A stretch of 64,000 bases of DNA from Escherichia phage vB_EcoM_phAPEC6, in the sequence record MK817115.1; one strand, given 5' to 3'. This document shows, piece by piece, positions 217-32,550 of the stretch (position 1 is its first letter; every line of letters begins with the position of its first letter). Position numbers and translations under genes: made by a program. Below the pieces are notes generated by a model. It saw only the letters and a list, made by a program, of their open reading frames with translations. It ran no database searches and was not told the origin of the DNA.

Positions 217-690
217 TTACTCCAAACTGGGATCTTTAACTGTTAGACTTTCTATGTCACTCGCATAAAGAACTACATTGGATTGATTTTCAGACACTTT
301 AAAGTCGTGATAACTGTCTTTGACGATAAAATTATCTAATATAAACCCTTTACTACAGCACATCATAATTTTATCATCTTTGATTGTGTAGGTGTTTTTC
401 TTTTTACGTACTTCAGATTGTGGCGTAATACTATCGTTATTACGAATAACACAATCAATATATTGTTCATTTGTACTCATAGGCATACCCATGATAAACG
501 AGTTTTCAGTACTGATTGTTAGTATAAAAACGTTAGTATTTGGGTTGTGAAAAAAATCATGCATTGTCTTGCTACACAAAAATAGACATTGAATAATGTC
601 CTTCACATTAAACATTATATCATGAACTTTGAATGCGTCCAACTCTAAAATGTCATCAATTTTCCCATTTTCAACAGTTTTAATCTCCAT
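217..690 (-). CDS. hypothetical protein (157 aa)
   Basis: ORF track; same-strand tightly packed array; no family motif seen. Confidence 0.6.
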   Translation of the reverse strand: MEIKTVENGKIDDILELDAFKVHDIMFNVKDIIQCLFLCSKTMHDFFHNPNTNVFILTISTENSFIMGMPMSTNEQYIDCVIRNNDSITPQSEVRKKKNTYTIKDDKIMMCCSKGFILDNFIVKDSYHDFKVSENQSNVVLYASDIESLTVKDPSLE

Positions 691-732
691 GATCTATCCT
701 TGATCTTCTAATGCACTCCATGTGCGTTTTTA

Positions 733-1230
733 TTAAGTCACTGCATTATACTTCTCTATAGCATTAGTAATATTTAATATAGCTTCAGGAACCATTTCTT
801 TATTGTATTCACGTTTTAAATTTTCCATTTTCTTAATAATTTCCAAGAAAAATGGCAAAATGCATGAAGTATCTGTGAAATTACATGAGTACAAAGTACT
901 CATTTGAAATAATTCACCTGAATCAATATTAAGAGATTTGTATTCCTTAACAATGTTTTCGTTTGTATTGAAAATATGAAATACTGTTCCCATGTGATGA
1001 AGATATACACCATTCTCATTTTGAATATTGCATGGTGTGATTACAATAGCAGTGTTGTCAATATTATTTACTATTGATAAACGTAGACTATGTAAACCTA
1101 AAATAACAGTACAATCACTTGAACTGCTTTGAATTTGGTCAGCAGTTTGTGTAACACTTGTAATATTTTCCCCATCAAGACAACTCTTGATTTTATCAAA
1201 TGAATTTTTCATTGATTTAGTTAGATACAT
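733..1230 (-). CDS. family A paralog (ExxxFQxS motif protein)
   Basis: ORF track 165 aa; motif SGELFQMSTLY. Confidence 0.7.
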   Translation of the reverse strand: MYLTKSMKNSFDKIKSCLDGENITSVTQTADQIQSSSSDCTVILGLHSLRLSIVNNIDNTAIVITPCNIQNENGVYLHHMGTVFHIFNTNENIVKEYKSLNIDSGELFQMSTLYSCNFTDTSCILPFFLEIIKKMENLKREYNKEMVPEAILNITNAIEKYNAVT

Positions 1231-1634
1231 TTATGAACACCTTCGAAATATTTGATTAATGATTTTATCTTATCGCTACTAATGCCATGTAAGTCAACAC
1301 CTAAACACTCGTATTGAAAAAAATCAATATCCTCAAGCGTGTTTAGATCAATTTCCACCTTATCATGACCCAACGAATTCATAATAACGTTTTTATCATT
1401 AATTGTCAAGAAAGTTTTTTTATCTGAACCTAAAAAGATTTTTACGTGTTTTTTTGGCATTACATCATAAGATAAAGATTGTGAACCATAAATGTATATG
1501 CCTTCCATTGAACCAATATCTATAAAATATAGACGAATCCCTTTGTGGTATTTTGACTCCTTAGTGATCGCCTCTATTAGTTCATCTGTGGTTGTTAACC
1601 TTGTTTCTTTCTTCTCTAAATTGCTCAAATGCAT
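1221..1634 (-). CDS. family A-like paralog
   Basis: ORF track 137 aa; motif EDIDFFQYECLGV; start may be internal Met. Confidence 0.6.
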   Translation of the reverse strand: MHLSNLEKKETRLTTTDELIEAITKESKYHKGIRLYFIDIGSMEGIYIYGSQSLSYDVMPKKHVKIFLGSDKKTFLTINDKNVIMNSLGHDKVEIDLNTLEDIDFFQYECLGVDLHGISSDKIKSLIKYFEGVHKCI

Positions 1635-2055
1635 AAAATAATACCTTGATCATTTGTAATGTTTCTGACATTACATCAGCAGAAAATTGAACATCAGTGT
1701 ATTTTACCATAGTACTTTGAGTAAAGAAAGTAGCTTCAATATCATCAAGGTCAAATGGTTCATCAAATAAATTAGTACTGAACATATCAGTTTTTTTCTT
1801 ATAAGTCAACATAAACTTAGCACTGTATCTCAATACAATTTCATCTTTACTTACTAAAATTCGTGCAATGTTCTGTCTACCCAGTGTTGTAATGTTAACA
1901 TTAAACGTATTCTTTCGTGCCTCAACAATATCAACGAAATAACCATCACCTTGGTAAACGTTATGACGAACTTCTAATCCTTGTTGAACTGTATTGAACA
2001 GTGCGTCCTGGATAAAATAATTTGCAGTATCGATGTTTCCTAAAATATCTAACAT
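1582..2055 (-). CDS. family A-like paralog
   Basis: ORF track 157 aa; variant motif EATFFTQSTMV. Confidence 0.6.
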   Translation of the reverse strand: MLDILGNIDTANYFIQDALFNTVQQGLEVRHNVYQGDGYFVDIVEARKNTFNVNITTLGRQNIARILVSKDEIVLRYSAKFMLTYKKKTDMFSTNLFDEPFDLDDIEATFFTQSTMVKYTDVQFSADVMSETLQMIKVLFYAFEQFREERNKVNNHR

Positions 2056-2585
2056 AACTTCTCCTTTATAGCTGTCATATTTAGAAGAAATTCAGTAAGC
2101 AATTCCTCCGTAACATGCTCTGTATACCAGAATATCACAATATCTTTTGAAAGTCGTGTATTCATAAAAATATCTACTAACTCTTTGTAGTACTCTAGCG
2201 TTTCGAGATTTGTGAGAATTAACGAGTACTGAAAGAGTAATTCTTCAGTTAGATTAAATTCTGGATAAAGTAAATCATTGAACTCATGTGATGCAGTTTG
2301 AACTTGAATTCGGTCAAAGTTATTGGTTATACAACCGGAATAAATATTTCGGTGCAACTCTCTGTACAACGCAGCATAATCTATGAATTTTGCTTTAGGG
2401 TTAAAATCAAGAACACTTTCACCTTTATATGACAATCGGTGGAACGCCGAGAACATAGTCACTTCCCACGGTTGCCTAATATCTAGCTCAGTGATATCAA
2501 TATTATTGGACAGAAGAACCGTAAAAATCTCACCAATCTTTAATAGTAATTTTGTACGTGCCAGTGCTACCATCGGGTCAGTCAT
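2049..2585 (-). CDS. family A paralog
   Basis: ORF track 178 aa; motif EELLFQYSLIL. Confidence 0.7.
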   Translation of the reverse strand: MTDPMVALARTKLLLKIGEIFTVLLSNNIDITELDIRQPWEVTMFSAFHRLSYKGESVLDFNPKAKFIDYAALYRELHRNIYSGCITNNFDRIQVQTASHEFNDLLYPEFNLTEELLFQYSLILTNLETLEYYKELVDIFMNTRLSKDIVIFWYTEHVTEELLTEFLLNMTAIKEKLC

Positions 2586-2998
2586 TATACACCTTCATAT
2601 TCATCAAGAAAATCTTCGATAATCATTTCAGCTTCATCCATATGCATAGCATCAACTTCAATGATGCGAACTTTAGATGCATCCCAAATCATATAACTAG
2701 GAACATTATCAGGCTCGTAGTCATTTTTGTACTGAACAGCATCGTAACCTTTCGAAATACAATGTTCAATTAGTGCACGCCACTCATCATCACTACCTAA
2801 ATCTTCACACAGAAGCACGTTATCAACATCAACTTCTAAGGTATGCAAGTATACTGTACATGCGTCTACTACGTTCAGTGGGCTTCTCAGCTTGCGTAAG
2901 GCAGCTTCCAAAGCACTGTGTTTGCCTCCCATATGAAGTCCACCATACGGGATATAAAAGTTATCAATTTTTACAGTACTCGCATGATACAGTTTCAT
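2585..2998 (-). CDS. hypothetical protein (137 aa), not family A
   Basis: ORF track; acidic C-terminus; no recognisable motif. Confidence 0.6.
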   Translation of the reverse strand: MKLYHASTVKIDNFYIPYGGLHMGGKHSALEAALRKLRSPLNVVDACTVYLHTLEVDVDNVLLCEDLGSDDEWRALIEHCISKGYDAVQYKNDYEPDNVPSYMIWDASKVRIIEVDAMHMDEAEMIIEDFLDEYEGV

Positions 2999-3007
2999 AT
3001 TTCATTC

Positions 3008-3592
3008 CTATTTCAGTACTTTAGTCAATGCTTTCACAGCGGTTTCGAGTTGAGCATAGTCGTTAATTGTAAGGTAATGAATACCATGTGCATTCATTTC
3101 AGCATCTATTTTATTATATAAATCAAACATGTCAAGGATATGATTGTATGCATATGAAGTATTTGAAACACACAATTCTTGGAACAAACGTTCTTCCAAG
3201 TCATTCACAACTTCTCCATGAATATCAAGTACTACACCATCTTTGTAAGTGTAGTACTCTTCACTCCACTCTTCAGAAAGTCGGAACAGTAACGGATTCC
3301 CGCCGAACACTTCCATGTCATAGGAATTTATCTCACTAAGTAGTGTTTCACCTGGTTCTGGTGTGAAGTCAAAATATGCGAGTGTTGTACCATCATAGTC
3401 CTTGAGTGATATACCAGTATGATTTAAGGTTACTTCACCATAATTATTATTCTTGAACTTGATTTTGATATTAATCTCAATGTATTTTATTGTCTCATCA
3501 TCACTGAAATTGTAATCAATTTTATACTTTTTCCAAAGAAGTTTGATATCTTTGAAGTACTTTAATTTACTTTCAATTTCTTTAAAGTCCAT
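3008..3592 (-). CDS. family A-like paralog
   Basis: ORF track 194 aa; motif EERLFQELCVSN. Confidence 0.6.
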   Translation of the reverse strand: MDFKEIESKLKYFKDIKLLWKKYKIDYNFSDDETIKYIEINIKIKFKNNNYGEVTLNHTGISLKDYDGTTLAYFDFTPEPGETLLSEINSYDMEVFGGNPLLFRLSEEWSEEYYTYKDGVVLDIHGEVVNDLEERLFQELCVSNTSYAYNHILDMFDLYNKIDAEMNAHGIHYLTINDYAQLETAVKALTKVLK

Positions 3593-4184
3593 CTGGAACC
3601 ACCATTTCTTGAATGTGCTTACATTTTATATTTGCCATATTGGTATGTAATATAATGCTGTGTTTACGCAATGATTTTACTTTGTAGCACTCATTGAGTA
3701 CCGAAATAATTCCCCATAACTCTTCTACACTAATAGTGATAGGTTCACTTGTACTCAGTTGCATCAGTGCTGCTTGAACATCATCTTTGTTATTAATAGT
3801 GAACTGGATTCCTCTTTTGAGAATTTTAGTTTTTGGATTGTACTCAGCTAATACATCACCTTCTGGATAACCCTCATGAAGTAATAATGTTGTTTCAAAA
3901 TCACCGCAGTTGAAGTTAATTTCATCATAATCAGGTACACAAATGTTCCCTTCCCCGTACTCATTAGGTTCAGATTCTAGTGTTAAAATACGCTGAGTCT
4001 CATTGCTCAGGATGATAGAATCATTCCAGTACTGGGTAGTGAATGCTCTACGTTTCTTTTGAAAGCACATACTCGACATTGACCCATACTTCTTGTATAT
4101 GGACTTCTTGAACTCAATAGCAGCAGGAGCCACCTTGATAACTTCACGAATTAAGTCAATAGCTTCTTGATAACTTTTTCTCAT
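3582..4184 (-). CDS. hypothetical protein (200 aa)
   Basis: ORF track; packed in array. Confidence 0.6.
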   Translation of the reverse strand: MRKSYQEAIDLIREVIKVAPAAIEFKKSIYKKYGSMSSMCFQKKRRAFTTQYWNDSIILSNETQRILTLESEPNEYGEGNICVPDYDEINFNCGDFETTLLLHEGYPEGDVLAEYNPKTKILKRGIQFTINNKDDVQAALMQLSTSEPITISVEELWGIISVLNECYKVKSLRKHSIILHTNMANIKCKHIQEMVVPDGL

Positions 4185-4732
4185 TTATCGTATCCATATA
4201 AAATATGATCTAGTGTACTTTGGACTTCTTCATGAAAGAATGAAGGGTAAACTTGTATTAATTTATCTTTAAGTTCAAGGGAATGGCATAGTTCTAATGT
4301 TTTGTAACAATCCTCGTACTGTGCCAGATCATGTAATGTACTTAACTGAAAATGTTGTTCTTCGGAGTACAATAAATCATAAACCATATTATCGGATAAA
4401 AGATTAGATTTGATTGAAGGATCAAGTACTGTCTGGTGGTGACCAACCCAAAAGATAGCTTTTGAGTTAATGTTATTACAACCCCATCCTTTCCCCATCT
4501 TTTGGTGAATAGCAAATACACAGGAATCATACAAATTAATGCTCAGACGTTCTTCGTCTGCATGGATAGTTACACCATCAATAGATAGTGTATATTTGAA
4601 ATCCATAGCCCCCTCACTTCGTGCACGAGAACTAAAGACCAGATATCGATGAATTATGGTATTGATTTTATCTGTCCATCCATCAACACATTTGGATGCA
4701 CATAATGTAAAAAGATCATGATTGTAGTTCAT
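4181..4732 (-). CDS. family A paralog
   Basis: ORF track 183 aa; motif EEQHFQLSTLHD. Confidence 0.7.
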   Translation of the reverse strand: MNYNHDLFTLCASKCVDGWTDKINTIIHRYLVFSSRARSEGAMDFKYTLSIDGVTIHADEERLSINLYDSCVFAIHQKMGKGWGCNNINSKAIFWVGHHQTVLDPSIKSNLLSDNMVYDLLYSEEQHFQLSTLHDLAQYEDCYKTLELCHSLELKDKLIQVYPSFFHEEVQSTLDHILYGYDK

Positions 4733-4793
4733 AAAATTCTCCTTTAGGACAATGTATCATACAAAAATACCAGAGTCAACCCCTGGTACGAAT

Positions 4794-5375
4794 TTAATCC
4801 ATCATAAGTGGGATAATTGCCCATATCTTTTTCATAATCATATCTTCAGTAAAAACAAATGTTTTAGGAGCAGTATATGATATTGACACACCAAATGGAA
4901 GTTTGATTGCATCATCAATTATATTATGAATATCAAACCATGTTTTAACATAATCATACGGTGGAAGTTCATGAATTGTACTTAACTGAAAGTAATTCTC
5001 TTCACCAAAATCACTATATTCAATTTCACAAATTTTAGTGAATTGATGATTCCATTTAGATATAATACTATTTTTATTATTGTACATAGTAGTTCTATGC
5101 ATAAAACCATTTTTGCTAGTATGATTTGATATTACGTTTTCTTCAATGTCAGTATCTATTTTAAAATTCATATCAAAGTTGTAGTACGGACTTGACGATT
5201 CTTTGAATTTTAAATGTAAATTGCGATTGTTATTAATTTCAATTTCAATACAAAACACATCTGAATCAAAACGATTAAACTTGTAATCGTTATCTTCCGG
5301 TAGATTCTGTATTTTTTTCATAATACTAAGCATAGGGTGTACTACACTTTTAATAAAATCATTTGTTATTTTCAT
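4794..5375 (-). CDS. family A paralog
   Basis: ORF track 193 aa; motif EENYFQLSTIHE. Confidence 0.7.
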   Translation of the reverse strand: MKITNDFIKSVVHPMLSIMKKIQNLPEDNDYKFNRFDSDVFCIEIEINNNRNLHLKFKESSSPYYNFDMNFKIDTDIEENVISNHTSKNGFMHRTTMYNNKNSIISKWNHQFTKICEIEYSDFGEENYFQLSTIHELPPYDYVKTWFDIHNIIDDAIKLPFGVSISYTAPKTFVFTEDMIMKKIWAIIPLMMD

Positions 5376-5868
5376 AGTATTCCTTTAGAACTTTATATGA
5401 TTCAACAATACTATCTTGTGTATAATTTGAACTATATACAACAGCACTTGTTTTAGTTGACCATAGATATGACATAAAGGTTATAACACTACTACATGGA
5501 CTTAATGTATTGTTTTGAAATTCAATTTCTTCAATGTTATCAGTACTGGTATAGATGAATTGGAAAGTACCCATTGATTTATTGGACAGCGATACTATAG
5601 TAGAATCCGTACCAGGACTATACATGAATGTCTCATTACTAATTGAACTATCATTAGTATATGATGGTTTGGGAATATAAATCAAACGCATGATATCGCG
5701 TTCAAGACCTGACTTATTACTTTCCACCAAAGAAATCATATCTATATTTGATATATGTTCAACACTGACATGGAACTTTTTGTCGAGAATCACATCTCCA
5801 TGAGAATTTTTATATGAAGACAAAATCTCATACATCTCAACTAATTCGCGTGCATTTAATAAACTCAT
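5359..5868 (-). CDS. family A-like paralog
   Basis: ORF track 169 aa; motif EEIEFQNNTLSP. Confidence 0.6.
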   Translation of the reverse strand: MSLLNARELVEMYEILSSYKNSHGDVILDKKFHVSVEHISNIDMISLVESNKSGLERDIMRLIYIPKPSYTNDSSISNETFMYSPGTDSTIVSLSNKSMGTFQFIYTSTDNIEEIEFQNNTLSPCSSVITFMSYLWSTKTSAVVYSSNYTQDSIVESYKVLKEYYENNK

Positions 5869-6293
5869 GTTTTGTCTCTTAATGAAAGAATATCCTTAGT
5901 ATAAACTGAAACAGAAATATGATTATATTTCATCATTAATTTATACACATAAGAAGCTAGTACTAAATCGTAAATTAATTTAGTATTATACAGTACTTGG
6001 TATTGTAACGCAAGTGAATCAATATCATCTTTACTTTCAATATCCAGAAATGTACCGAAAAATGTAGTACCGTAGAGATGAAAAGTGGAATTAATGCAAT
6101 CAATGCATTCATTGTCCAATAGAGTAGATGCTGATGCCCTCGGTGAATCCCAAATAGTCACTGCGTGTATGCCCTCAACGAACAAATCTATCCATATTTT
6201 GTGTCGTTGTCTTTTTTTTGTTTTATAATTTTCTGGATTTGAAAGTGTAGTTTCAATTATATCCCATATGTACAAACAATCATCTCTTGTCAT
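5865..6293 (-). CDS. hypothetical protein (142 aa)
   Basis: ORF track; 4-nt overlap with neighbours. Confidence 0.6.
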   Translation of the reverse strand: MTRDDCLYIWDIIETTLSNPENYKTKKRQRHKIWIDLFVEGIHAVTIWDSPRASASTLLDNECIDCINSTFHLYGTTFFGTFLDIESKDDIDSLALQYQVLYNTKLIYDLVLASYVYKLMMKYNHISVSVYTKDILSLRDKT

Positions 6294-6871
6294 TGTAGCA
6301 CCTTATCCATTGCTGCATTTAATGCTTTTAAACGATCAACATTCAAAGTATTGAAGATGTACGTTCCTAAAATGTGGAAATCGAATTGGTTCTTTTTGTA
6401 TGTATGATAAATTAAACTACAAAAAACAACAGTACTAAGAACCTCTTCAGGTATAACAGTGCTCATCTGGAACAGTTCTTCTTCAACTGTACTTGAATCT
6501 GGATTGATAGCTTTTAACACATACTCTTCATCACCGAATAGTACTTTAATATTATATAAAACACCAATAGTACTAATATGGAATGGGTGATGTGAAAAAC
6601 TTCCATCATCCTTAATTTGTATATCGGTTCTAATCTCACACTCTTCATTACTTTTACTTTTATTTTTTACAATACAAATATTTCTGGCCCCAGAAATAGT
6701 AAGAATACCGTGGTCGTAATATTCATTTGACCAACATTTAGATGAAATTGATACATCACGGATGAGATATTGTTTTTCAATTTCTTTCGCACTACCAACA
6801 ATTGATAGCATTTTTTTACTGATATCATATAATAACTGATGGCGTTCTGTCATATAACTATAAGCGTTCAT
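6290..6871 (-). CDS. family A paralog
   Basis: ORF track 193 aa; motif EEELFQMSTVIP. Confidence 0.7.
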   Translation of the reverse strand: MNAYSYMTERHQLLYDISKKMLSIVGSAKEIEKQYLIRDVSISSKCWSNEYYDHGILTISGARNICIVKNKSKSNEECEIRTDIQIKDDGSFSHHPFHISTIGVLYNIKVLFGDEEYVLKAINPDSSTVEEELFQMSTVIPEEVLSTVVFCSLIYHTYKKNQFDFHILGTYIFNTLNVDRLKALNAAMDKVLQ

Positions 6872-7442
6872 ATTTTTCCTTAACAGATTCTATATTTTGA
6901 AGTAGTGTATTCAGAACATCAGTCTTGCAATTGATAAAATCATTGTACATAACTAGTTCACCACAATCAAGAATTTTTGCAGTATCGTAACAAAGCATTA
7001 AGTACTCGAATTCTTTGTAATTGTCCAACAAGGATTTCTGGAAAATGAATGCATCTCGAATATCTTCACTTTGGTCTAATTCTGGTGGAACATCCAACCC
7101 AATAAATCCATCATCTTCACTGAAATTAGATTCTACAATTTTATTCATTTTTTCATGTAATGCATTCGCAAATACCATATTAGAAGAAATAGAACCAATA
7201 CGTTCACGATTTCTGGATGTGCGAATGTACATAGTAATCGTATCCCATGAACTTTTAATTTTTTTAGAAAATTCATAAGTTTTATATACATCCAACTGAA
7301 CTGATCCAAAACGATGTTTGGATTTGTTTTCAATTTTCAGTCGATAATCATCAAATTCAACAATTTCTGTAATGTCATGAATCTCTGAAAGTTCTGCAAT
7401 GTCATGCATGAGTCTCAAAATTTTAGTTCTGATATGGTTCAT
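6858..7442 (-). CDS. family A-like paralog
   Basis: ORF track 194 aa; motif DAFIFQKSLLDN. Confidence 0.65.
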   Translation of the reverse strand: MNHIRTKILRLMHDIAELSEIHDITEIVEFDDYRLKIENKSKHRFGSVQLDVYKTYEFSKKIKSSWDTITMYIRTSRNRERIGSISSNMVFANALHEKMNKIVESNFSEDDGFIGLDVPPELDQSEDIRDAFIFQKSLLDNYKEFEYLMLCYDTAKILDCGELVMYNDFINCKTDVLNTLLQNIESVKEKYERL

Positions 7443-8017
7443 TGTGCATCCTCGAATTTAACAGGTACATGTTCATTAATGAAATTCTTAAGAGCCTGTA
7501 CTAAATCCTCTAATTCTTTTGTACTGTATTTTAAAATAGTTTTAAAGTGAATCAAATCTTTTCTTTCCATGATCTTTGGAATTTTATATGCTAACTCTAA
7601 ACAGCGTACAGTACTGGCATCATACAAAAGGTTTGCGTTGAACATTAGAACATTGTATTCATCAGATGAAATTTTATAATTATATGTATCAATCACTTCA
7701 TGTGTGTATAAATTCTTATACACAATTTTATTCTCACTGAAGTTTGAGCAAACACACAGATGATCGTTGTAAAATGAAGAACGATAATCTTGTTTACGTT
7801 GTACATCTGCTATGATTTGTAATACTGTATATTTTTCTTCAGAATCCAACTCAATGTTAGCATAACTGCTCGCAGTTTCAGATACAAGGATATTGATGTT
7901 ATATTTCTCATTAACTTTAATGTACTGGCGTGAGCCAGTATCAGGAATGAACTTAAAACAATGCTTCAGAAGTAATGTGACTTCTTTAATTAATTCAGTA
8001 CTCATAGATTCCTCCAA
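7439..8017 (-). CDS. family A-like paralog (divergent)
   Basis: ORF track 192 aa; degenerate motif NVLMFNANLLYD. Confidence 0.55.
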   Translation of the reverse strand: MEESMSTELIKEVTLLLKHCFKFIPDTGSRQYIKVNEKYNINILVSETASSYANIELDSEEKYTVLQIIADVQRKQDYRSSFYNDHLCVCSNFSENKIVYKNLYTHEVIDTYNYKISSDEYNVLMFNANLLYDASTVRCLELAYKIPKIMERKDLIHFKTILKYSTKELEDLVQALKNFINEHVPVKFEDAQ

Positions 8018-8071
8018 CTCTAGTTAAAATCAAGTATAACACACCTGAATGCTCTTGTAAAGCCATAAACA

Positions 8072-8092
8072 CAAAAAGACCCATACGGGTCT
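8072..8092 (-). terminator. intrinsic terminator
   Basis: hairpin AGACCC-atac-GGGTCT directly after stop of 8093..8659, followed by T-run on minus strand (A-run 8072-8076 on plus); T-run also on plus side. Confidence 0.5.
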
Positions 8093-13526: not shown

Positions 13527-13531
13527 TTGTT

Positions 13532-18466: not shown

Positions 18467-18467
18467 T

Positions 18468-18959: not shown

Positions 18960-18968
18960 TTTATAATC

Positions 18969-21198: not shown

Positions 21199-21380
21199 AA
21201 TATGTCCTCTGTACAGCGTAGGTGTACTGTGAACTCAGCACCACTAATAGGTAATCTATATTGTAAGCACGATTTCCTCGTTGACTAGCACGGCTGGAAT
21301 AAAGAATATTATCCACATATGTATTGAACTGATCTTCAAATAACTCTTTCATCAGCATTATACCATCACATAATCATACA

Positions 21381-22004
21381 TCATACATTAACAACTTTAT
21401 CGATGTAATCTTCTAACATATCAATATATCTGGTATTGGTTCTAACTAAAAGGTATGCAAATCCAGAGAACTCCTGTGTATAATGCTTTACAGCGTACAT
21501 ACAACGAAGCTTATCATTGTCATACATTGTACTGTACTGAAACAAACTCTCGTCTGATAGCTCTAATAACGCTTGGGCTTCACTTCTCGTGAACTTCATA
21601 GGGTCATGTACTGCATCACAAAAACAAACCTGTGTCTCGCTATTGAAACCCTGTGATAGATATATACCTTCACACTCTGAACGCACCGATACTGCATTAT
21701 AACTATGTGTTGCCCCCATCATATCTGAACTCAAAACTAAAATCAACCCATTTTTATTTTTAATCAACAAATCTGACTTAAGGGATTTGATCTCCGTATG
21801 GGAAATATCACCAAATCTTCCTGGGACTTCAAACTTATCAACGTTGTATACAATCTTTTGTACTTGCTCTTTTAAACGCTTAATTGCACTTCTGTCTTTT
21901 TCTAATGTATCTAATAAACTCATTGAACTCATTGTACTTTCCTTACATATTTGTACCGAACAAAACGGAACTGCGAACGTCATTGATCGACAATTCATGT
22001 ACAT
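21381..22004 (-). CDS. family A paralog
   Basis: ORF track 207 aa; motif DESLFQYSTMYD; true start may be internal. Confidence 0.65.
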   Translation of the reverse strand: MYMNCRSMTFAVPFCSVQICKESTMSSMSLLDTLEKDRSAIKRLKEQVQKIVYNVDKFEVPGRFGDISHTEIKSLKSDLLIKNKNGLILVLSSDMMGATHSYNAVSVRSECEGIYLSQGFNSETQVCFCDAVHDPMKFTRSEAQALLELSDESLFQYSTMYDNDKLRCMYAVKHYTQEFSGFAYLLVRTNTRYIDMLEDYIDKVVNV

Positions 22005-22284
22005 ATATATTTTGTCTGAACAAAGGAACTAATTGAACTAAACTTTGTTGCATAACAATATGCATATGTAAATTGTCATATGCCGTTTCGTATTGGAAAC
22101 GTGCTGCTTCATCTTCTATGAAATTAGGAACTTGGACTGGATTTTCAAAATTTGTTCTTGAACTGAACTGCACATCATTATCCTGTACTTTAATACCATA
22201 TGCATTATCATCATCATATACATCTAATTCAATTAAACTACCATCACTTTTTATGTTTACCACACAAACCGAAAATCGACTCAT
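21943..22284 (-). CDS. family A-like paralog
   Basis: ORF track 113 aa; motif EAARFQYETAYD. Confidence 0.55.
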   Translation of the reverse strand: MSRFSVCVVNIKSDGSLIELDVYDDDNAYGIKVQDNDVQFSSRTNFENPVQVPNFIEDEAARFQYETAYDNLHMHIVMQQSLVQLVPLFRQNIYVHELSINDVRSSVLFGTNM

Positions 22285-22796
22285 AAACCTATTTCCTCTA
22301 AATCTTTGACAAATGTATCATAATCCGATAATGACAAAAATATGTCTGTACTGATGTTTTGACGTAATGTATTAAACAAATTATGTACCTGTAATAAATC
22401 AGGTGCATAAATCAGGGATTGCTGGAAATACGATTCTTCTGTATCTAATATATCCCTGCACTCAATTTCACGAACTCGTTGGTATATTGAATTTAATAAT
22501 ACATTTTCATCTTTGAGCATTGGAAGGTATCTGATGTACATGTGCTCCATCAACTCATCCTGGATTGAACCCCTGAACTGCAACACGTATTCAAAACACA
22601 TCACTACATCTTGTAGGTAATTGGCACTGTAATTATTGCTGTAAACAATCTTATGACTTCTGAACTCATCATCATTTCTGAACCAATCGTCACCCACTTT
22701 GGTGTACTTATGACTAAGCTTCCCATCCTCCAACGCTCGAATGAACTTCATAATGTTAATTGCAAAATCATATGAATGATGCTTGTGTTGATGCAT
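22281..22796 (-). CDS. family A paralog
   Basis: ORF track 171 aa; motif EESYFQQSLIYA. Confidence 0.7.
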   Translation of the reverse strand: MHQHKHHSYDFAINIMKFIRALEDGKLSHKYTKVGDDWFRNDDEFRSHKIVYSNNYSANYLQDVVMCFEYVLQFRGSIQDELMEHMYIRYLPMLKDENVLLNSIYQRVREIECRDILDTEESYFQQSLIYAPDLLQVHNLFNTLRQNISTDIFLSLSDYDTFVKDLEEIGL

Positions 22797-22804
22797 TTTT
22801 TACC

Positions 22805-22999
22805 TCAATTCTGTCCGAAAAAATAACCAAAATGTTTAAAACAAGAAAGCATTACTATGTTCATCACTCTATCATCAAATTCATCTTGTGTTTCTGCACA
22901 TAATGTTTCACAGATATTCAAATGTAATAATTCAAGCTGGAAACTGTCGGTGAACCAATCAAACTTACGGTATTTTTGTTTAACATCAACTGTAAGCAT
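22805..22999 (-). CDS. hypothetical protein (64 aa)
   Basis: ORF track. Confidence 0.4.
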   Translation of the reverse strand: MLTVDVKQKYRKFDWFTDSFQLELLHLNICETLCAETQDEFDDRVMNIVMLSCFKHFGYFFGQN

Positions 23000-23000
23000 A

Positions 23001-23624
23001 CTATATATCCAACCCTTTTACAACATCTACGAAATGTTCAAACACTTCTTTTGAAAAATAACCACCTTCACAAAAAAGCATACTAAACGGTGGCAGCATG
23101 TCCGATAACTCTTTAGCTAAATTGATTTCTGCTCTTAACTCTTGAACATCAATGATATCATGTACTAACGATAATTGAAACATGAATGCATCTACATCTT
23201 CATTCATTTCTGAATTGTAATATAACTCTTCAGGGAATTTGTCGGTTTCGTAATAATAAAAAACTTTATTGTTGAACACACCACTAATAGGAACATCATT
23301 TTCATCTTTCTTTGAAATGTTTGTTTCCCATGACTCTATATTATTAGGAACAAAAAAATCATAGGCTGATTTTGAACCCTGTACTGAATCCAACTTTATT
23401 CCATAATATTCCGTATCCATGTATTTCTGCTGTAATGTAATACCACGTGTACTGACATTCACTTGGAATATATCATCTTTATCTGGAACACTAAATGGAA
23501 TACATAACACTGAATTCTCAGGGTATTTGGCAATGAATGCATCCAGCACTTTATTAAGCACCGGAATGGCAATTTTACTGTACTGCATCAAATCATACAT
23601 TTTAATTCTGGTCATATCATTCAC
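23001..23624 (-). CDS. family A paralog
   Basis: ORF track 207 aa; motif VDAFMFQLSLVHD. Confidence 0.7.
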   Translation of the reverse strand: MNDMTRIKMYDLMQYSKIAIPVLNKVLDAFIAKYPENSVLCIPFSVPDKDDIFQVNVSTRGITLQQKYMDTEYYGIKLDSVQGSKSAYDFFVPNNIESWETNISKKDENDVPISGVFNNKVFYYYETDKFPEELYYNSEMNEDVDAFMFQLSLVHDIIDVQELRAEINLAKELSDMLPPFSMLFCEGGYFSKEVFEHFVDVVKGLDI

Positions 23625-24144
23625 CTGTGTATGTTTTCACCCTTAGCGATTCAAAATCCCATACATCACTGATTGTACCATTGTGCCTGTAATCATAATA
23701 TTCTACTAATACATTATACAATAACTTCAACGATACAAATTCATGATTCCACGGAGCTTTATTCTCATGAACACATTTGGTGATATAAGGTATAATATAT
23801 AAACTAAACAACACTAATGGTGAATGTATACATTGCATTTGAAAATATTCTTCTTCTTGCATACAATGCTCAGGAATAATCAATTCCGTATGTGACCCTA
23901 AGCTATACGAACCTGCTGTGTATTTTTTCGTATCACATGCGTACCATATTGTACTATCCGAAATAAATGGAATGATACCATTATTGTTTGCAATGTACAT
24001 CATATGGTAAGAGCGATTTGTCTTGTTAAATATCTCAATACTTTCGATATTACTACAAATCATGTATTCAATGCAATCAATAATCTTATCTTTAAATGCA
24101 CCAATTTCATTGAATGTCATTGATTTCTGCACTTCACTGCTCAT
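23617..24144 (-). CDS. family A-like paralog
   Basis: ORF track 175 aa; motif EEEYFQMQCIHS. Confidence 0.65.
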   Translation of the reverse strand: MSSEVQKSMTFNEIGAFKDKIIDCIEYMICSNIESIEIFNKTNRSYHMMYIANNNGIIPFISDSTIWYACDTKKYTAGSYSLGSHTELIIPEHCMQEEEYFQMQCIHSPLVLFSLYIIPYITKCVHENKAPWNHEFVSLKLLYNVLVEYYDYRHNGTISDVWDFESLRVKTYTGE

Positions 24145-24683
24145 ATGTTCTCCTTAAAAAAATTCAAATACTCTTCATTGAAAGCATATGTATCATCTTT
24201 TTTGTTATGCACCACATAATCATAAAGAGCTATGAATGCAGGGATTATGATCTTACATGATTTATTATTGTATTTGTACTGCTCCAAATCAACGGTGTTC
24301 AATTTAGCAATAAGCATAGCAGCAAAGATATCTTCATGGCGGTGTACTGTGCTGTACTGAAAATATTCATCCTCTCCAATATCGGGATGATATAACGGTA
24401 TAACCAAATTATTACGAATTGACATCTTATATTTTTGTAATGCAGCTAAATGTATGAACCACAATCTATCTTCATTGAAATATGGAAAAATAATTTTGTC
24501 TGTGCTAATAAAAATTTCTTCATTTCGATTATTTGTCACAAGAGGTGCATACATTTTAATTTTTGCAGATTTAATAATTAAATTAAAAATATAATGAATC
24601 TTATGAACTGCACTTGATGCATCTTCGTATGTACTTGGGATTATGAAACTCACTATATGTTCTCCTTTAAAATGAATACACAT
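24141..24683 (-). CDS. family A paralog
   Basis: ORF track 180 aa; motif EDEYFQYSTVHR. Confidence 0.7.
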   Translation of the reverse strand: MCIHFKGEHIVSFIIPSTYEDASSAVHKIHYIFNLIIKSAKIKMYAPLVTNNRNEEIFISTDKIIFPYFNEDRLWFIHLAALQKYKMSIRNNLVIPLYHPDIGEDEYFQYSTVHRHEDIFAAMLIAKLNTVDLEQYKYNNKSCKIIIPAFIALYDYVVHNKKDDTYAFNEEYLNFFKENI

Positions 24684-24735
24684 GATAACAGCTTTGGTCT
24701 TCTATGTCAATACCAAAACGAAAAAAGCCCATATC

Positions 24736-25242
24736 TTACGATACAGGCGTTCTGGGCATGTTGATTTGAATTTCATTGTACAAATCATCAATATATAGAC
24801 ATGAAAAAAATACACTATCTTGTACTATATTGTTGTGATAAAGCATTTTAAATACTACATAAAAAAATAAATCAATATCATCGTGGACTAAATTCTGCTG
24901 GAACCACCACTCGTCTGTTAAATCTTGTGCATTAAAATCATCAGGAACTTCAATGAACGACATATCACAATCTTCTTTGTACTCAAACCACATGTCGTCA
25001 TTCGGATAACGTTCATGCTTCTCTGGGTAACAATTGCTGGGATTAAATGTTAAAATATTAAACCCCGTAGAGCAACGTTCTTTATTTAAAAATGTATTAT
25101 TCCATACCTGATATTTTTCACCAACATCAAGCTCTTCTGTTACTGATTTTATTGCACATAATGTACTGTATATTGTTTCTATCTTGTGAACATATTTAAA
25201 TGCAGCATCTAAGCTGAACTCTAAATCATACATGTACTGCAT
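24736..25242 (-). CDS. family A paralog
   Basis: ORF track 168 aa; motif TDEWWFQQNLVHD. Confidence 0.7.
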   Translation of the reverse strand: MQYMYDLEFSLDAAFKYVHKIETIYSTLCAIKSVTEELDVGEKYQVWNNTFLNKERCSTGFNILTFNPSNCYPEKHERYPNDDMWFEYKEDCDMSFIEVPDDFNAQDLTDEWWFQQNLVHDDIDLFFYVVFKMLYHNNIVQDSVFFSCLYIDDLYNEIQINMPRTPVS

Positions 25243-25562
25243 AAAATTACCTCAACTAAAGCAAGGACTGTATTGAATTCCACTATACTTGTAATTCCTT
25301 GAAGGTACATATACTTTGCTACTACATATTTCTGTACTAAATTATAATTATTAAATTCCTCAAAATTGTAATTTAGAACAAAATCTGTACTCAAAAATAT
25401 CTTATGCATCTCTAATGCACTTTGATAATACGCGTACAACTCACTGATATCAATACTGGTTAAATTATATTGTTCATATCTATGATACGGGATGGCTTCA
25501 ATTTCAATACTATAAAACCATTCTCTTAACTTATTAATATCAAATGTATTATTCAGCTTCAT
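25221..25562 (-). CDS. hypothetical protein (113 aa)
   Basis: ORF track. Confidence 0.55.
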   Translation of the reverse strand: MKLNNTFDINKLREWFYSIEIEAIPYHRYEQYNLTSIDISELYAYYQSALEMHKIFLSTDFVLNYNFEEFNNYNLVQKYVVAKYMYLQGITSIVEFNTVLALVEVILCSTCMI

Positions 25563-26115
25563 AACTCAATACCTCCATTAAACACTCATACACACCATCA
25601 ATCGCATAAGCACAAAAATTGAAATTAATTTTGTGATTCTTGTGTAATGGACTATTGTGTACTGTACTCATTATGACATTATAAAATAACAAACGCACTG
25701 GTACAAGCATTGAACCTTGGAAAAATTCTTCCTCTGATTTATATGTATTGTACTCTATTGTTTTGTTCGTTTCTTTATCATATGTTACCATTACTAATGG
25801 GGCATTTTTATTATACCATGCGTACTCTAAATCATTCTTTCCAATAACAGCACCAGGTGCGAAATCCAAAAGACCAATAACACTACGGGAATTTGGGGTA
25901 TCAGGTGTATTGAATCGTTTATCAAAATGACTCGTGCACGCAATATATGTATTGTACTTCGATGGAATAATACCAATACATTTGTGGAAATGACGCTTGT
26001 GATATTTCTGGGCATTATATAAGGCTGCAACAATACAAGCTAACTTTTGTCCCATAAGGATTGCATTAGCGTAGGTGTACTGAATTTCATTGCTGGTACG
26101 GTACTTCGAGGTCAT
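25549..26115 (-). CDS. family A paralog
   Basis: ORF track 188 aa; motif EEEFFQGSMLVP. Confidence 0.7.
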   Translation of the reverse strand: MTSKYRTSNEIQYTYANAILMGQKLACIVAALYNAQKYHKRHFHKCIGIIPSKYNTYIACTSHFDKRFNTPDTPNSRSVIGLLDFAPGAVIGKNDLEYAWYNKNAPLVMVTYDKETNKTIEYNTYKSEEEFFQGSMLVPVRLLFYNVIMSTVHNSPLHKNHKINFNFCAYAIDGVYECLMEVLSYEAE

Positions 26116-26398
26116 AATATTTCCTTTGCCATATCATGGGCTTAAAATCAATAACAGCTTTCTGTATCTTTTTTAATAATAAGACATCATAACCACCCGT
26201 GTCAATCACTAATTGCTGTTGGAACAATTCTTCATCGGATAATGTATTGAAATCTACAAAATAATCTGTAACTATCGAATCATTTAAATGTGCCATGTAC
26301 CAACCTGAACTTCTTGAATAAATCAAATTCCACCCATCGTCATCATCTTCTAATTCAACATAAATCATATCTGGGGTATACATCATTTTATACTTCAT
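26087..26398 (-). CDS. family A paralog
   Basis: ORF track 103 aa; motif DEELFQQQLVID. Confidence 0.7.
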   Translation of the reverse strand: MKYKMMYTPDMIYVELEDDDDGWNLIYSRSSGWYMAHLNDSIVTDYFVDFNTLSDEELFQQQLVIDTGGYDVLLLKKIQKAVIDFKPMIWQRKYYDLEVPYQQ

Positions 26399-26936
26399 AA
26401 CTATATCCTTGCATTAATAAATCATAAACTACATGGACTAAATTTAATTGAATATAAAATTTTAAACCTTTAATTAATGGATTCAAATGCATTGTACTGA
26501 ATAACATTAGATACATCATCTCATGCGGTTTTGTGATTAATGATTTTTGAAATACTTCAGCTTCATCATAAGGGTCTATGAACTGAAATTTGTCTTCATC
26601 ATAATTTGTATTGGAATGCTGATATATAAAATAATCATCATTGGTATTGTACCACAAATATCCTTCGAATCCTGTACTAACATCTTTGGTCAATGGGGAT
26701 GCTGATACTGGATTTGAACTGATTAATGCACCTACATCAACAATCCCCGTTGTATCATATTCGATTTCAACATCAATATCAATGTATTTCCTTGCGATAT
26801 CCGCGTTTATGGACAAATATAAACTACCACCTGTCCTCTGACTCAGGATTCCATCTATATGCGATATAGGATGGTTGTTATTGAGGATAAGCATTATTGT
26901 ACTTATCTTGTGTGCTAATAACTCTATCTCATTCAT
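26388..26936 (-). CDS. family A paralog
   Basis: ORF track 182 aa; motif EAEVFQKSLITK. Confidence 0.7.
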   Translation of the reverse strand: MNEIELLAHKISTIMLILNNNHPISHIDGILSQRTGGSLYLSINADIARKYIDIDVEIEYDTTGIVDVGALISSNPVSASPLTKDVSTGFEGYLWYNTNDDYFIYQHSNTNYDEDKFQFIDPYDEAEVFQKSLITKPHEMMYLMLFSTMHLNPLIKGLKFYIQLNLVHVVYDLLMQGYSYEV

Positions 26937-27136
26937 AATTTACCTATCGATGGATACCTAGGATTTGTAGGATGTAAAATCCTGTCCTGTACTGAAAGGT
27001 GCTCAAATGTAATTAAACTCAAATAATAATCGTAATTATCAATACCACCCTTCAAATGTATATTGTAATACATCTTAATACTATCTAATAATGAATCCTG
27101 TAATGCATTTAATGTTATCGTATTAATCTTTTGCAT
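26933..27136 (-). CDS. hypothetical protein (67 aa)
   Basis: ORF track. Confidence 0.45.
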   Translation of the reverse strand: MQKINTITLNALQDSLLDSIKMYYNIHLKGGIDNYDYYLSLITFEHLSVQDRILHPTNPRYPSIGKL

Positions 27137-27284
27137 TAATGTTCTTCTCTTAAAAATCGTTTGATAGCATAATCTAAATAAAATTCATAACACATGCTAT
27201 CTCTGTTCTTTATCCATATTTTGTAATCGGATTTTATATTACGCAACAAATAATTTGTATTAATTGTGTAATAATCTAATCGCC

Positions 27285-27677
27285 CTAATCTTTCCATTTA
27301 ATAGGATACTCCTTTCCTTGTACTATATATGACAAAATCCATCCGTAATGAATAGGATGATTTTTGTCTGAATCAGGAATAAAATATAAAGCTGTACTTG
27401 GATTATGACTGAATAAATCTTTATTGTCAAATGTAAAATGTGATAATATAATTTTCCTTGCACTTGGACGAATAACATTCTTAACACTGAACTCTGAACC
27501 TTTGTATTTCTCCGATAATTCAAATAATGCATCTGTAATTAAATCACTGATCTCTTGGATTACAAAATTCTGATAAAATGCATTAATCTCTTTTAACTCT
27601 GTATACAATTCACTTCTGGTATTCAAAAGAAATATTACTTTTTTAAGATCCTGAACTATTTCTGGATTCATATTCAT
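27285..27677 (-). CDS. hypothetical protein (130 aa)
   Basis: ORF track. Confidence 0.55.
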   Translation of the reverse strand: MNMNPEIVQDLKKVIFLLNTRSELYTELKEINAFYQNFVIQEISDLITDALFELSEKYKGSEFSVKNVIRPSARKIILSHFTFDNKDLFSHNPSTALYFIPDSDKNHPIHYGWILSYIVQGKEYPIKWKD

Positions 27678-27909
27678 TTATCTCATTCTGTATCTTAAGC
27701 ATCAAAATTTGCATATTAATTTTTTGTACAAGGTGCTTGATAAATTTCTGTGCCATTTCTTCTTGTTCTTTTGTACCAAGATAAAATAACAGATTAAATT
27801 CTGATAATCGCAAAGAAAAATCTTCATCACCACCCTTTAAACAAAAATCCCTGTACTTTGTAGCGTACAAATATTGGTTTACCTTTTTATAATACCCTGT
27901 GTTTTGCAT
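27643..27909 (-). CDS. family B paralog
   Basis: ORF track 88 aa; motif YLGTKEQEEMAQKFIKHL. Confidence 0.6.
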   Translation of the reverse strand: MQNTGYYKKVNQYLYATKYRDFCLKGGDEDFSLRLSEFNLLFYLGTKEQEEMAQKFIKHLVQKINMQILMLKIQNEINEYESRNSSGS

Positions 27910-28097
27910 ACTATCTCCGTTCGCAACGAATTTATATAATAATGAACAAATTGTTCTTGTGAACGTGTTCCAAGAAAAATAAACATATCAAACTCTGTTG
28001 TTTTTAAATTCAATGCATCTTTTGTAAAATTCCTGTTGAATTCCCTGTACTTTTGGGTCTTCCATTCTTGATTAATTGTCTTGTATATCGATTTCAA
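27879..28097 (-). CDS. family B paralog
   Basis: ORF track 72 aa; motif FLGTRSQEQFVHYYINSL. Confidence 0.6.
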   Translation of the reverse strand: MKSIYKTINQEWKTQKYREFNRNFTKDALNLKTTEFDMFIFLGTRSQEQFVHYYINSLRTEIVCKTQGIIKR

Positions 28098-28398
28098 TGA
28101 TTCTCCCTGATGTACCTTGTATTAGCTTATCATACATATCGAGCATCACTTTTTGAATACTAATTAGTACTGGCATCGTGCAAATATCAATGTCGTATAC
28201 TAAGCTGTACTGGAATAATTCATCTTCCTGCATTTGTACTAAATTAGGTAAAGGATAATTGTCTGCCTCTTCATCCTGGTACTTGAAATGCATAACACCA
28301 TCCTTTTTGTACAAAAGAATGTCAATATCACCTAACTCATCAGCATAACCAAAAATACATATACTCGATGTTTTTGCTATATTAAATTTCATCTCCAC
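28072..28398 (-). CDS. family A paralog
   Basis: ORF track 108 aa; motif EDELFQYSLVYD. Confidence 0.7.
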   Translation of the reverse strand: MEMKFNIAKTSSICIFGYADELGDIDILLYKKDGVMHFKYQDEEADNYPLPNLVQMQEDELFQYSLVYDIDICTMPVLISIQKVMLDMYDKLIQGTSGRIIEIDIQDN

Positions 28399-28634
28399 CT
28401 CTCTCCGTCAGCACAAGAGTACTGGTACGTTGTCGTTAGGGTAGGGACCATGTTTGTAATGGGCATGTTGTTAACAATAACCGTAACAGGCATAAGAATC
28501 GTCTCTACTCTACTCTGTCCTGTCCTTGTGCAATTCATCTTCTGCATTTCATCTGAATCCATGAAATACAATACAAATGGTGCAATCCCAAGAACAATAC
28601 ACAAGACGATAAGGAAATTTAAAAAATTTAACAT
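28389..28634 (-). CDS. small membrane protein (predicted N-terminal TM helix)
   Basis: ORF track 81 aa; hydrophobic stretch LNFLNFLIVLCIVLGIAPFVLYF. Confidence 0.45.
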   Translation of the reverse strand: MLNFLNFLIVLCIVLGIAPFVLYFMDSDEMQKMNCTRTGQSRVETILMPVTVIVNNMPITNMVPTLTTTYQYSCADGERWR

Positions 28635-28693
28635 AATTTTTACCCTATGATTAACGTTAGTGTACTATATCAGTAATGAAAAGTACTGTCAAG

Positions 28694-29098
28694 CTAGTAT
28701 TGCACTGTTCTAATGAAAGTACCTTTACTCATGGATTTAAGCTTATGAACCTCTTCCTGCATACCCTTAATTAACCCTAAAGGTATAGGTAAATCATGTA
28801 CTAAGCTGTACTGAAAGTATTCTTCTTCAGATAAAGTACTAACATCTGGAACGCCAATTTTAGTTATATAATCTTGATGTGTTGACCAATAAATTATATC
28901 TTCAGTACTATTGTACTCCCCATATACTGAACAATATTGATGAATATCTTTCCTGTACCCTTGAGCAATAAAGAACTTATCTAATGCATTACCAGCATTA
29001 ATAGAATTTACTTCGATTGTCACAGTACTTGAGCTTGTATAACTCTTAATATTATCAGTACTCTTAATACTCAACGATGTGTTCTTCATAATCACCAT
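28694..29098 (-). CDS. family A paralog
   Basis: ORF track 134 aa; motif EEEYFQYSLVHD. Confidence 0.7.
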   Translation of the reverse strand: MVIMKNTSLSIKSTDNIKSYTSSSTVTIEVNSINAGNALDKFFIAQGYRKDIHQYCSVYGEYNSTEDIIYWSTHQDYITKIGVPDVSTLSEEEYFQYSLVHDLPIPLGLIKGMQEEVHKLKSMSKGTFIRTVQY

Positions 29099-29408
29099 TA
29101 GGCTCCTGTTTAGATTCTTTCATTAGTACTATCATCTTATGTACTAATGGCATAGGAAACTCTAAATCCCATACTAATGATTCCTGAAAGTATTCCTCTG
29201 GTGATAAAGTACTTAAATCTTTAATATCAACGTGCTTGTATATTTTATTTTCGTAATTAACAAATGATATATATAAATCACTAACATAAGAATCATAGGT
29301 AATTGTGAATGGTTTACCCTTGTAATCCATTACATCTCTACATAGACTACTTTTGATATATGTATGTTCAAATGATTTATATACCTTGAGTTGTATATTA
29401 GTTTTCAT
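29064..29408 (-). CDS. family A paralog
   Basis: ORF track 114 aa; motif PEEYFQESLVWD. Confidence 0.7.
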   Translation of the reverse strand: MKTNIQLKVYKSFEHTYIKSSLCRDVMDYKGKPFTITYDSYVSDLYISFVNYENKIYKHVDIKDLSTLSPEEYFQESLVWDLEFPMPLVHKMIVLMKESKQEPNGDYEEHIVEY

Positions 29409-32548: not shown

Positions 32549-32550
32549 TA

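Follow-up and report, generated by a model that had tools for sequence, protein, structure and literature searches.

Here, we describe family A, a multigene family that takes up most of a 29-kb gene array in a 64,000-nucleotide (nt) stretch of Escherichia phage vB_EcoM_phAPEC6 (sequence record MK817115.1), which we analysed over its full length and refer to as the window. Rak2-like jumbo phages have carried family A for a long time, and its products are non-virion proteins that share one alpha/beta scaffold and an EExxFQxS motif. Our analyses support the view that the genes are real and under selection and that their products are soluble and non-structural. Predicted promoters and gene order suggest that they are probably transcribed by the host polymerase, as part of an early terminal block. 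The role that we favour, tentatively, is that of a set of early host-interaction proteins that serve host takeover or counter-defence, with one target per paralogue.

Positions 1-24000 of the window are 97–99% identical to SHEFM2K, 121Q and Sharanji, jumbo myoviruses of roughly 350 kb in the genus Asteriusvirus ('Rak2-like' group), and 98.7% identical to Escherichia phage vB_EcoM_G17 (314276-338286). The array region is AT-rich (30–35% GC), has a negative GC skew and holds 69 tightly packed, non-overlapping minus-strand open reading frames (ORFs) between 217 and 29408. Between 733 and 29408, 36 minus-strand ORFs contain FQxS; elsewhere in the window a single, unrelated ORF does. This is an excess of about 36-fold over the chance expectation of roughly one per ~9,500 residues. 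BLASTP alone recovers groups of 14 short and 8 long members and one further pair. Seeding an iterative profile hidden Markov model (HMM) with the eight BLAST-linked long members, we searched all 262 window ORFs and required every ORF to pass E < 1e-3 by profile search before joining. The model converged at 40 ORFs, all on the minus strand and inside 733-29408, with no recruits elsewhere in the window, and enlarging it with 146 database homologues brought in no extra window ORFs at the same cut-off. These firm members correspond to 64% of the DNA in the 29-kb array.

An earlier, sequence-only reading of this DNA had counted about 50 paralogues. One very large paralogous family is indeed present, but by profile comparison we put it at no fewer than 40 members, these being the firm ones among the 69 ORFs, with about six further probable or possible ones. 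ORF 217-690, which had been taken as the first member of the array, has no detectable relationship to family A by hhalign. The proposed outlying member at 57965-58636 is only a possible one: its motif, EEELFMYSTV, carries M at the position of the invariant Q, its HMM E value is 0.06 and hhalign gives 72% over 20 columns. We also compared 21 non-member ORFs with family A in hhalign, using mini-profiles composed of the window sequence and its orthologues from the related phages EC.P1 and A4. Only three exceeded a probability of 70%, and all the others were indistinguishable from controls; therefore, we do not claim the whole array as one superfamily. Interspersed among the family A genes are three genes of a second family, family B, and about 20 unrelated small ORFs, and the plus-strand ORFs of the region are antisense shadows.

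The similarity among members is not a product of chance or composition and extends well beyond the short motif, with profile homology over a whole domain of ~110–160 amino acids (aa) that comprises a beta-meander, the EExxFQxS helix, a hydrophobic helix and a terminal FYLD strand. The alignment runs from an amphipathic N-terminal helix (in long forms) through strands rich in Y, I and F, a conserved D and the block EE-x-[YL]-F-Q-x-S-x-[VI] to the hydrophobic helix and F-Y-L-D strand that had already been noticed after the motif. If the start methionine is set aside, only F and Q are invariant, being present in all 40 members; S is found in 33 of 40, and the EE positions are ~80–88% acidic. The FQ pair sits ~45–60 residues from the C terminus and is followed by x-S-[TL]-[VI]. 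Divergence around it is as strong as first described, with a median pairwise identity of 16.8% and a maximum of 62%, and adjacent members are more similar than random pairs (permutation p < 0.0002).

Members fall into 12 short (103–137 aa) and 28 long (147–207 aa) forms. We modelled one of each with AlphaFold2, giving the 40 paralogues as the alignment, so that the two models used the same alignment and are not independent. The long-form model (162 aa, 17068-17556; predicted local distance difference test (pLDDT) 89.5, predicted template modelling score (pTM) 0.85) has a helix at 3-21, seven strands, short helices at 99-103 and 109-115, the latter with the motif, a helix at 121-135, a strand at 141-144 (FYFD) and a helix at 145-153. 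The short-form model (118 aa; pLDDT 84.7, pTM 0.82) consists of five strands, the motif helix, the long helix and the terminal strand, in the same element order and with a common C-terminal topology. As the short form retains the motif helix, long helix and terminal strand, the core domain is about 110 aa, to which long forms are predicted to add an N-terminal helix and extra strands. Conserved positions are mostly hydrophobic or aromatic and lie in strands and helices, the polar exceptions being the EE pair, Q114, S116 and D103, a pattern that suggests a conserved core with variable surfaces.

These polar exceptions bear on one alternative function, in which the invariant polar face of the EExxFQxS helix would dock all paralogues onto one host or phage machine, such as a protease, a modifying enzyme or a polymerase, while the variable beta-sheet picks substrates, as in the F-box/PRANC or BTB families expanded in large eukaryotic viruses. 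The conservation of F, Q, S and the acidic pair, with the motif kept also in the Klebsiella phage RaK2, is strict for polar residues and unusual for a purely structural core. In the models, however, conservation of the motif helix would also fit packing and capping, with an acidic N terminus, F and Y/L sharing one face and S at the C-cap, and we regard adaptors with a common partner as improbable.

Family A proteins appear to be soluble and mostly acidic, with a median isoelectric point (pI) of 5.0 and a pI below 6 in 35 of 40. Transmembrane segments are unlikely because a hydrophobic 19-mer occurs in only 1 of the 40 members, whose start is probably mis-called; by the same hydropathy measure, the proteins are unlikely to be membrane-bound or secreted. 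The phAPEC6 homologues gp426c and gp442c are absent from the 62-protein virion proteome obtained by mass spectrometry, and its Table 1 has no entry between gp347 and gp549.

The earlier statement that the family cannot be assigned to a known domain held in every search. Pfam (10 members, then all 40) and NCBIfam scans assigned no family, a profile search of all PDB sequences gave no match at E ≤ 10, a structural search against solved structures found no match to the predicted fold, and PADLOC defence models returned only chance-like single-member matches (best E = 9e-5, 1 of 40 members). DNA mimics of the Ocr and ArdA type were matched neither by the PDB profile search nor structurally, acidity being the sole common trait, and family and profile scans found no enzymatic or nucleic-acid-binding signature. 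Foldseek searches of predicted viral structures led only to uncharacterised proteins of Rak2-like phages, namely 121Q, Cronobacter phage GAP32, Klebsiella phage RaK2, Serratia phage BF and Yersinia phages fHe-Yen9-03 and -04. Exhaustive profile searches returned 42 clusters at 90% identity and 111 representatives at 50% identity, all short. Homologues with source names are hypothetical proteins of Asteriusvirus and related Salmonella jumbo phages or of ~350-kb 'E. coli' contigs, and most of the remaining ones come from metagenome or Logan contigs. The persistence of jumbo phages in bacterial isolates accounts for 'E. coli' contigs of this kind (bioRxiv 10.1101/2024.12.31.630880).

Among PHROGs, family A matches phrog_9317, 12674, 13866, 28549, 19795, 15629, 30243, 35776 and 34636 (E down to 1e-141) and is split over at least nine groups, all annotated as 'unknown function', which belong together because they cross-hit at E values of 1e-5 to 1e-13. 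A tblastn search reached RaK2 with a real member as the query and gave no match with the HMM consensus sequence. We found no description of the family, its motif, its fold or its cross-genus collinearity in the literature.

A relationship to SUKH or other immunity proteins, raised in the sequence-only reading, was not borne out. Members of the SUKH / SMI1-KNR4 superfamily resemble family A in being small alpha+beta proteins that occur in viruses too and are often encoded in tandem polyimmunity arrays; paralogues of this type would neutralise toxins or effectors, or else keep rival jumbo phages out while an infection persists. Such a set would fit the layout, in which small diverged paralogues stand in tandem and their alleles differ strongly between strains, and the frequency of Asteriusvirus genomes in bacterial assemblies has been attributed to persistent infection (bioRxiv 10.1101/2024.12.31.630880). 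SUKH and SMI1_KNR4 Pfam models gave no match at E ≤ 0.1 in any of the 40 members, and no structural similarity of the family A models to solved SUKH-fold proteins was found. Linkage to toxins or effectors is not apparent either, with no Pfam or other known domain among 20 non-family ORFs of the array. We consider an immunity or exclusion set very unlikely.

The history of the array can be traced across genera. A4 and EC.P1 carry 39 and 42 HMM members in syntenic arrays, and RaK2 (JQ513383), of the genus Alcyoneusvirus, has at least 28 HMM matches and FQx[ST] in 32 ORFs within 31 kb. The window and RaK2 share 16 reciprocal best hits that are collinear (Spearman rho −0.80, p = 2e-4; the ten strongest give rho −0.93), and for 16 of the 40 window members some RaK2 protein is a closer match than every paralogue encoded alongside them. 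Hence the expansion is ancient and its paralogues are individually maintained, and these comparisons place it before the split of Asteriusvirus and Alcyoneusvirus; a recent burst is not supported, given the presence and collinearity of the family in RaK2. Recent local duplications lie on top of the old array, in the five-gene block 16638-18959 and in 18969-20695, and an 85-nt direct repeat, 96% identical (19599-19683 and 20128-20212), marks a recent partial gene duplication.

Related phages also differ in array content, as had been suspected, both in these member numbers and in DNA coverage of an 8-kb array slice, which ranges from 3% to 100% within Asteriusvirus. Diversifying selection, the cause first suggested for the expansion, finds no support in the ratio of non-synonymous to synonymous substitution rates (dN/dS, or omega). 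Against positional orthologues in EC.P1 it is 0.08–0.67 over 29 orthologue pairs, with a median of 0.29 that resembles those of other array genes (0.25) and family B (0.31), dS being saturated at the most divergent alleles. This gene-wide median indicates purifying selection, and gene-wide positive selection is rejected on the same values. Along the array, dS against EC.P1 varies from 0.03 to more than 2, which indicates mosaic recombination. Against A4, the median identity of family A alleles is 39%, with dS so saturated that the comparison is unreliable for omega, and the repeat genes of the same pair are 96% identical. Alleles at the same position are 23–40% identical between phages whose direct terminal repeat (DTR) genes (window 35.8-40.1 kb) are 86–100% identical. 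We interpret this hypervariability as that of old, exchanged alleles under purifying selection.

Purifying selection and a paralogue order conserved across genera are both typical of fixed functions, and family A might work inside the phage, as chaperones, scaffolds or DNA- or RNA-handling factors for the 350-kb genome, with paralogues per phage client. The low allele identities beside nearly unchanged DTR genes and the uneven array coverage, however, amount to a plasticity unusual for core functions, and the missing virion signal and the lack of a nucleic-acid-binding or enzymatic signature in our scans likewise count against such housekeeping, to which we assign a low probability. That the genes have no function at all, being decaying duplicates, selfish DNA or chance frames with a motif born of composition, would fit one truncated duplicate (20049-20213) and the AT-richness of the region. 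This explanation is effectively refuted by the excess of the motif over chance, the whole-domain homology, the conservation of the family in another genus and the confident fold predictions, as well as by an omega that stays low in family A and exceeds 1 in nested antisense or alternative-frame ORFs.

Neighbouring genes overlap by 1–4 nt at their starts and stops through long runs of the array, and only seven gaps of 40 nt or more, ~1.5% of the DNA, interrupt its 29 kb. Five of the 21 strongest minus-strand sigma-70 matches fall inside these seven gaps, four of them with an upstream TG and one a weaker site at 20771-20744. Terminator hairpins are found next to three of them, and in two gaps the hairpins (8018-8092 and 24684-24735) stand upstream of the promoters. 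Family A genes thus appear to be arranged in a few operon-like units behind predicted promoters of the host sigma-70 type. The G17 record has identical 20,668-bp copies at both ends, which map to window 35,695-55,770; direct terminal repeats of ~21 kb are described for Sharanji (PMC11895373), and that of fEgEco12 was verified by restriction mapping (PMC13070987). Inward from the right terminus, the order is repeat, family B array (29642-35627) and family A, all in the same direction, away from the terminus. A physical genome end inside the array (~window 20174, from the boundary of the Sharanji record) is ruled out by the duplicated ends of G17; the Sharanji GenBank record starts and ends at the spot of the 85-nt repeat, which is not a physical end. 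Repeat genes are early transcripts in PA5oct (PMC7318152), and early expression is predicted for the equivalent region in CBB (PMC5259590).

Our preferred account, still a tentative one, is that family A acts on the host. The conserved positions would form the structural core and the variable positions the protein surface, with which each paralogue would bind, and then neutralise or redirect, a different host protein, in takeover or against defence; allele exchange by recombination would tailor the set to different host strains. A role in host range, anti-defence or immunity, as first proposed, is plausible. Several points weigh against it. Our searches found no similarity to known anti-defence or host-takeover proteins. 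Being polar, the invariant Q and the near-invariant EE and S might belong to a functional site common to the paralogues instead of a structural keystone, and long one-to-one conservation of paralogues across genera would fit fixed housekeeping equally well. The early-expression data come from a distant relative and concern DTR genes, not this array, and promoter-like matches are in total no more numerous than expected from shuffling, which leaves their placement in the gaps as the only informative feature. More doubtful is a stronger version, in which ~40 early proteins on one previously unseen scaffold each disable a different host defence or factor, with alleles shuffled to match strains.

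Genes and sites of the family A array (positions in the window; RBH, reciprocal best hit)
Feature	Position	Strand	Evidence or context
Family A array overall	733..29408	-	69 packed ORFs, 40 firm members
Family A, 165 aa (SGELFQMSTL)	733..1230	-	E=1.2e-4; RBH RaK2 L007 30742-31239
Family A, 178 aa	2049..2585	-	E=3.7e-5; RBH RaK2 29287-29838
Family A, 183 aa	4181..4732	-	E=4e-4
Family A, 193 aa	4794..5375	-	E=1.3e-7; RBH RaK2 26506-27099
Family A, 169 aa, FQNN variant	5359..5868	-	E=1.2e-4; RBH RaK2 26027-26518
Family A, 193 aa	6290..6871	-	E=2.8e-5
Family A, 188 aa	8093..8659	-	E=9.4e-9
Family A, 187 aa	8604..9167	-	E=4.3e-8; RBH RaK2 22607-23215
Family A, 167 aa	9690..10193	-	BLAST-linked seed
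Family A short form, 137 aa	10181..10594	-	BLASTP + HMM
Family A short form, 120 aa	10578..10940	-	BLASTP + HMM
Family A, 164 aa	10906..11400	-	Seed; tblastn 29.5% identity to RaK2 ORF419
Family A, 158 aa, first gene past consensus promoter 11936-11907	11397..11873	-	HMM
Family A, 194 aa	11933..12517	-	E=9.9e-14
Family A short form, 113 aa	12477..12818	-	BLASTP + HMM
Family A, 147 aa	12797..13240	-	E=2e-8
Family A short form, 120 aa	13164..13526	-	BLASTP + HMM
Family A, 186 aa	14125..14685	-	E=1.9e-5
Family A, 149 aa	15573..16022	-	Seed
Family A short form, 104 aa	16327..16641	-	E=1.4e-4
Family A, 150 aa, recent five-gene tandem block	16638..17090	-	BLASTP
Family A, 162 aa, long form modelled (pLDDT 89.5)	17068..17556	-	BLASTP
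Family A, 147 aa, recent block	17556..17999	-	BLASTP
Family A, 156 aa, FQQN variant, recent block	17996..18466	-	BLASTP
Family A, 163 aa, 58% identical to 17068-17556	18468..18959	-	BLASTP
Family A short form, 119 aa, FQAA variant	18969..19328	-	BLASTP + HMM
Family A short form, 118 aa, modelled (pLDDT 84.7)	19325..19681	-	BLASTP
Family A short form, 123 aa	19681..20052	-	BLASTP + HMM
Truncated duplicate, 54 aa, possible member	20049..20213	-	85 nt 96% identical to 5' end of 19325-19681
Family A, 161 aa as listed, TTG start probably too far upstream	20210..20695	-	BLASTP + HMM
Family A, 207 aa	21381..22004	-	E=5.2e-4
Family A, 171 aa	22281..22796	-	E=3.2e-7; RBH RaK2 17221-17595
Family A, 175 aa, FQMQ variant	23617..24144	-	E=3.4e-4
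Family A, 180 aa	24141..24683	-	E=1.5e-4
Family A, 168 aa, FQQN variant	24736..25242	-	E=3.8e-4
Family A, 188 aa	25549..26115	-	BLASTP + HMM
Family A short form, 103 aa	26087..26398	-	E=1.4e-5
Family A, 182 aa	26388..26936	-	BLASTP + HMM
Family A short form, 108 aa	28072..28398	-	BLASTP + HMM; RBH RaK2 9090-9425
Family A, 134 aa	28694..29098	-	BLASTP + HMM
Family A short form, 114 aa, promoter-proximal array end	29064..29408	-	BLASTP + HMM
Probable divergent member (LEERLFQELCV)	3008..3592	-	hhalign probability 81.5% over 55 columns
Probable member, divergent DA[FY]xFQxS subfamily	6858..7442	-	Motif; subfamily profile vs family A P=1.3e-4
Probable member, DA[FY]xFQxS subfamily	23001..23624	-	hhalign 76.7%; positional counterpart in phage A4 passes HMM
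Possible member (DEQCFQLSCT), basic protein	15040..15576	-	Motif; hhalign only 9.5%
Possible member	21943..22284	-	E=0.0036, enlarged HMM
Possible outlying member	57965..58636	-	~2 kb past terminal-repeat boundary, in family C block
Sigma-70-like promoter TTGACA-17-TATAGT with TG	28664..28692	-	In one of seven intergenic gaps
Terminator hairpin then promoter TTGACA-17-TATCAT with TG	24682..24748	-	Terminator also annotated in G17
Promoter-like site TTGACA-16-AAAAAT	20744..20771	-	In 88-nt gap
Perfect-consensus promoter TTGACA-18-TATAAT with TG, then 5' hairpin	11907..11936	-	
Terminator hairpin then promoter TTTACA-17-TATACT with TG	8033..8094	-	
Terminator hairpin overlapping TTGACT -35 element	4733..4793	-	

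Two annotated genes of the A4 array stand out. A4_348 (ON286972, L003, 23821-24357) is labelled 'DNA ligase' and is a family A member, and the label looks wrong because its family A HMM E value is 1.4e-11; the window lacks a counterpart of A4_379, a 1.4-kb gene annotated 'methyl-accepting chemotaxis protein' that lies inside the A4 array (8878-10290). Downstream of the RaK2 array (JQ513383, L007, 244822-285289) are ORF441 (894 nt) and ORF445 (861 nt), and Sharanji and EC.P1 have genes of 849–855 nt directly upstream of the window start. These similar sizes suggest that the array borders are syntenic across genera too.

Family B, an array of ~75-aa proteins, comprises 29 BLAST-linked paralogues of ~66–104 aa, many of them basic (pI 8–10), and fills the 6 kb that separate family A from the terminal repeat, with copies embedded in the family A array at 14675-14866, 27643-27909 and 27879-28097. 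In the repeat (window 35695-55770), the GC content rises to 0.36–0.41, and the GC skew switches sign at about 56 kb, not far from where the repeat ends, with genes remaining on the minus strand to ~60.3 kb. A ~90-nt intergenic cassette is reiterated there in at least 21 copies (window 36531-55421); on the minus strand it consists of a strong sigma-70 promoter (TTGCAA or TTGACA, 17 nt, TATAAT), a conserved GGGGAGAA...TTCTCCCC hairpin and the ribosome-binding site of a small gene. With the cassette placed before small genes, each repeat gene seems to own a promoter and a 5' hairpin, unlike the operon-packed families A and B. The gene-free 1.6 kb that ends the repeat holds a tandem array with an 8-nt period (CGTCTAGC / CATCCAGC ...; 54868-55019), which may be a packaging, terminus or origin element. 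Past the repeat, window 56034-60256 (the 'family C' block) contains BLAST-linked groups of ORFs of ~60–87 aa (7, 4, 2 and 2 members) and encloses the possible family A outlier, and three consecutive paralogous ORFs of ~380–400 aa occupy the plus strand at 60341-63937, at the switch of transcription direction.

Large eukaryotic viruses offer parallels to family A. The multigene families MGF110, MGF360 and MGF505 of African swine fever virus and the ankyrin/PRANC, Bcl-2-like and kelch families of poxviruses are host-range and immune-evasion factors. Family A resembles them in having tens of diverged tandem paralogues on one scaffold near the ends of a double-stranded DNA genome that is both large and linear, and in being non-structural and variable in content between strains. 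It differs in its bacterial host and in having no sequence or fold relationship to them; unlike the poxvirus families, which also expand and contract over short timescales, it has many old paralogues whose order is kept across genera. Among phages, the hyperplastic early regions of T4-like phages, the terminal-redundancy host-takeover module of SPO1 and the pre-early genes of T5 encode host-takeover and anti-defence proteins, and these blocks are dispensable in the laboratory and variable between relatives. Family A has in common with them small function-unassigned genes, sigma-70 promoters, which are predicted ones in its case, and a position at or near terminal repeats. Whereas they are mixtures of unrelated, individually promoted genes, a single operon-packed family makes up 40 of the 69 genes and 64% of the region here. 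Bacillus phage G has a lineage-specific expansion of ~35 zinc-ribbon proteins, proposed to be DNA-binding or transcription factors (PMC7824862). That is likewise a very large expansion of one family in a jumbo phage, but with a known fold, whereas family A is acidic and has no known fold or metal-binding motif.

One uncharacterised protein family takes up ~8% of a 350-kb phage genome here; it is maintained in at least two genera (Asteriusvirus and Alcyoneusvirus), and Cronobacter, Serratia and Yersinia jumbo phages encode structural relatives of it. A unified definition of family A would improve annotation across the clade, as it is now split between PHROGs, has no Pfam entry and is occasionally mis-annotated. 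If its members are host-interaction proteins, they would represent ~40 natural variants of one scaffold with different specificities, which would aid the search for anti-defence and takeover mechanisms and the engineering of binders, and would help explain the narrow, variable host ranges of therapeutic jumbo coliphages. Should they prove to be a counter-defence battery, it would be the largest single-scaffold counter-defence set known in a bacteriophage, built on a new protein fold.

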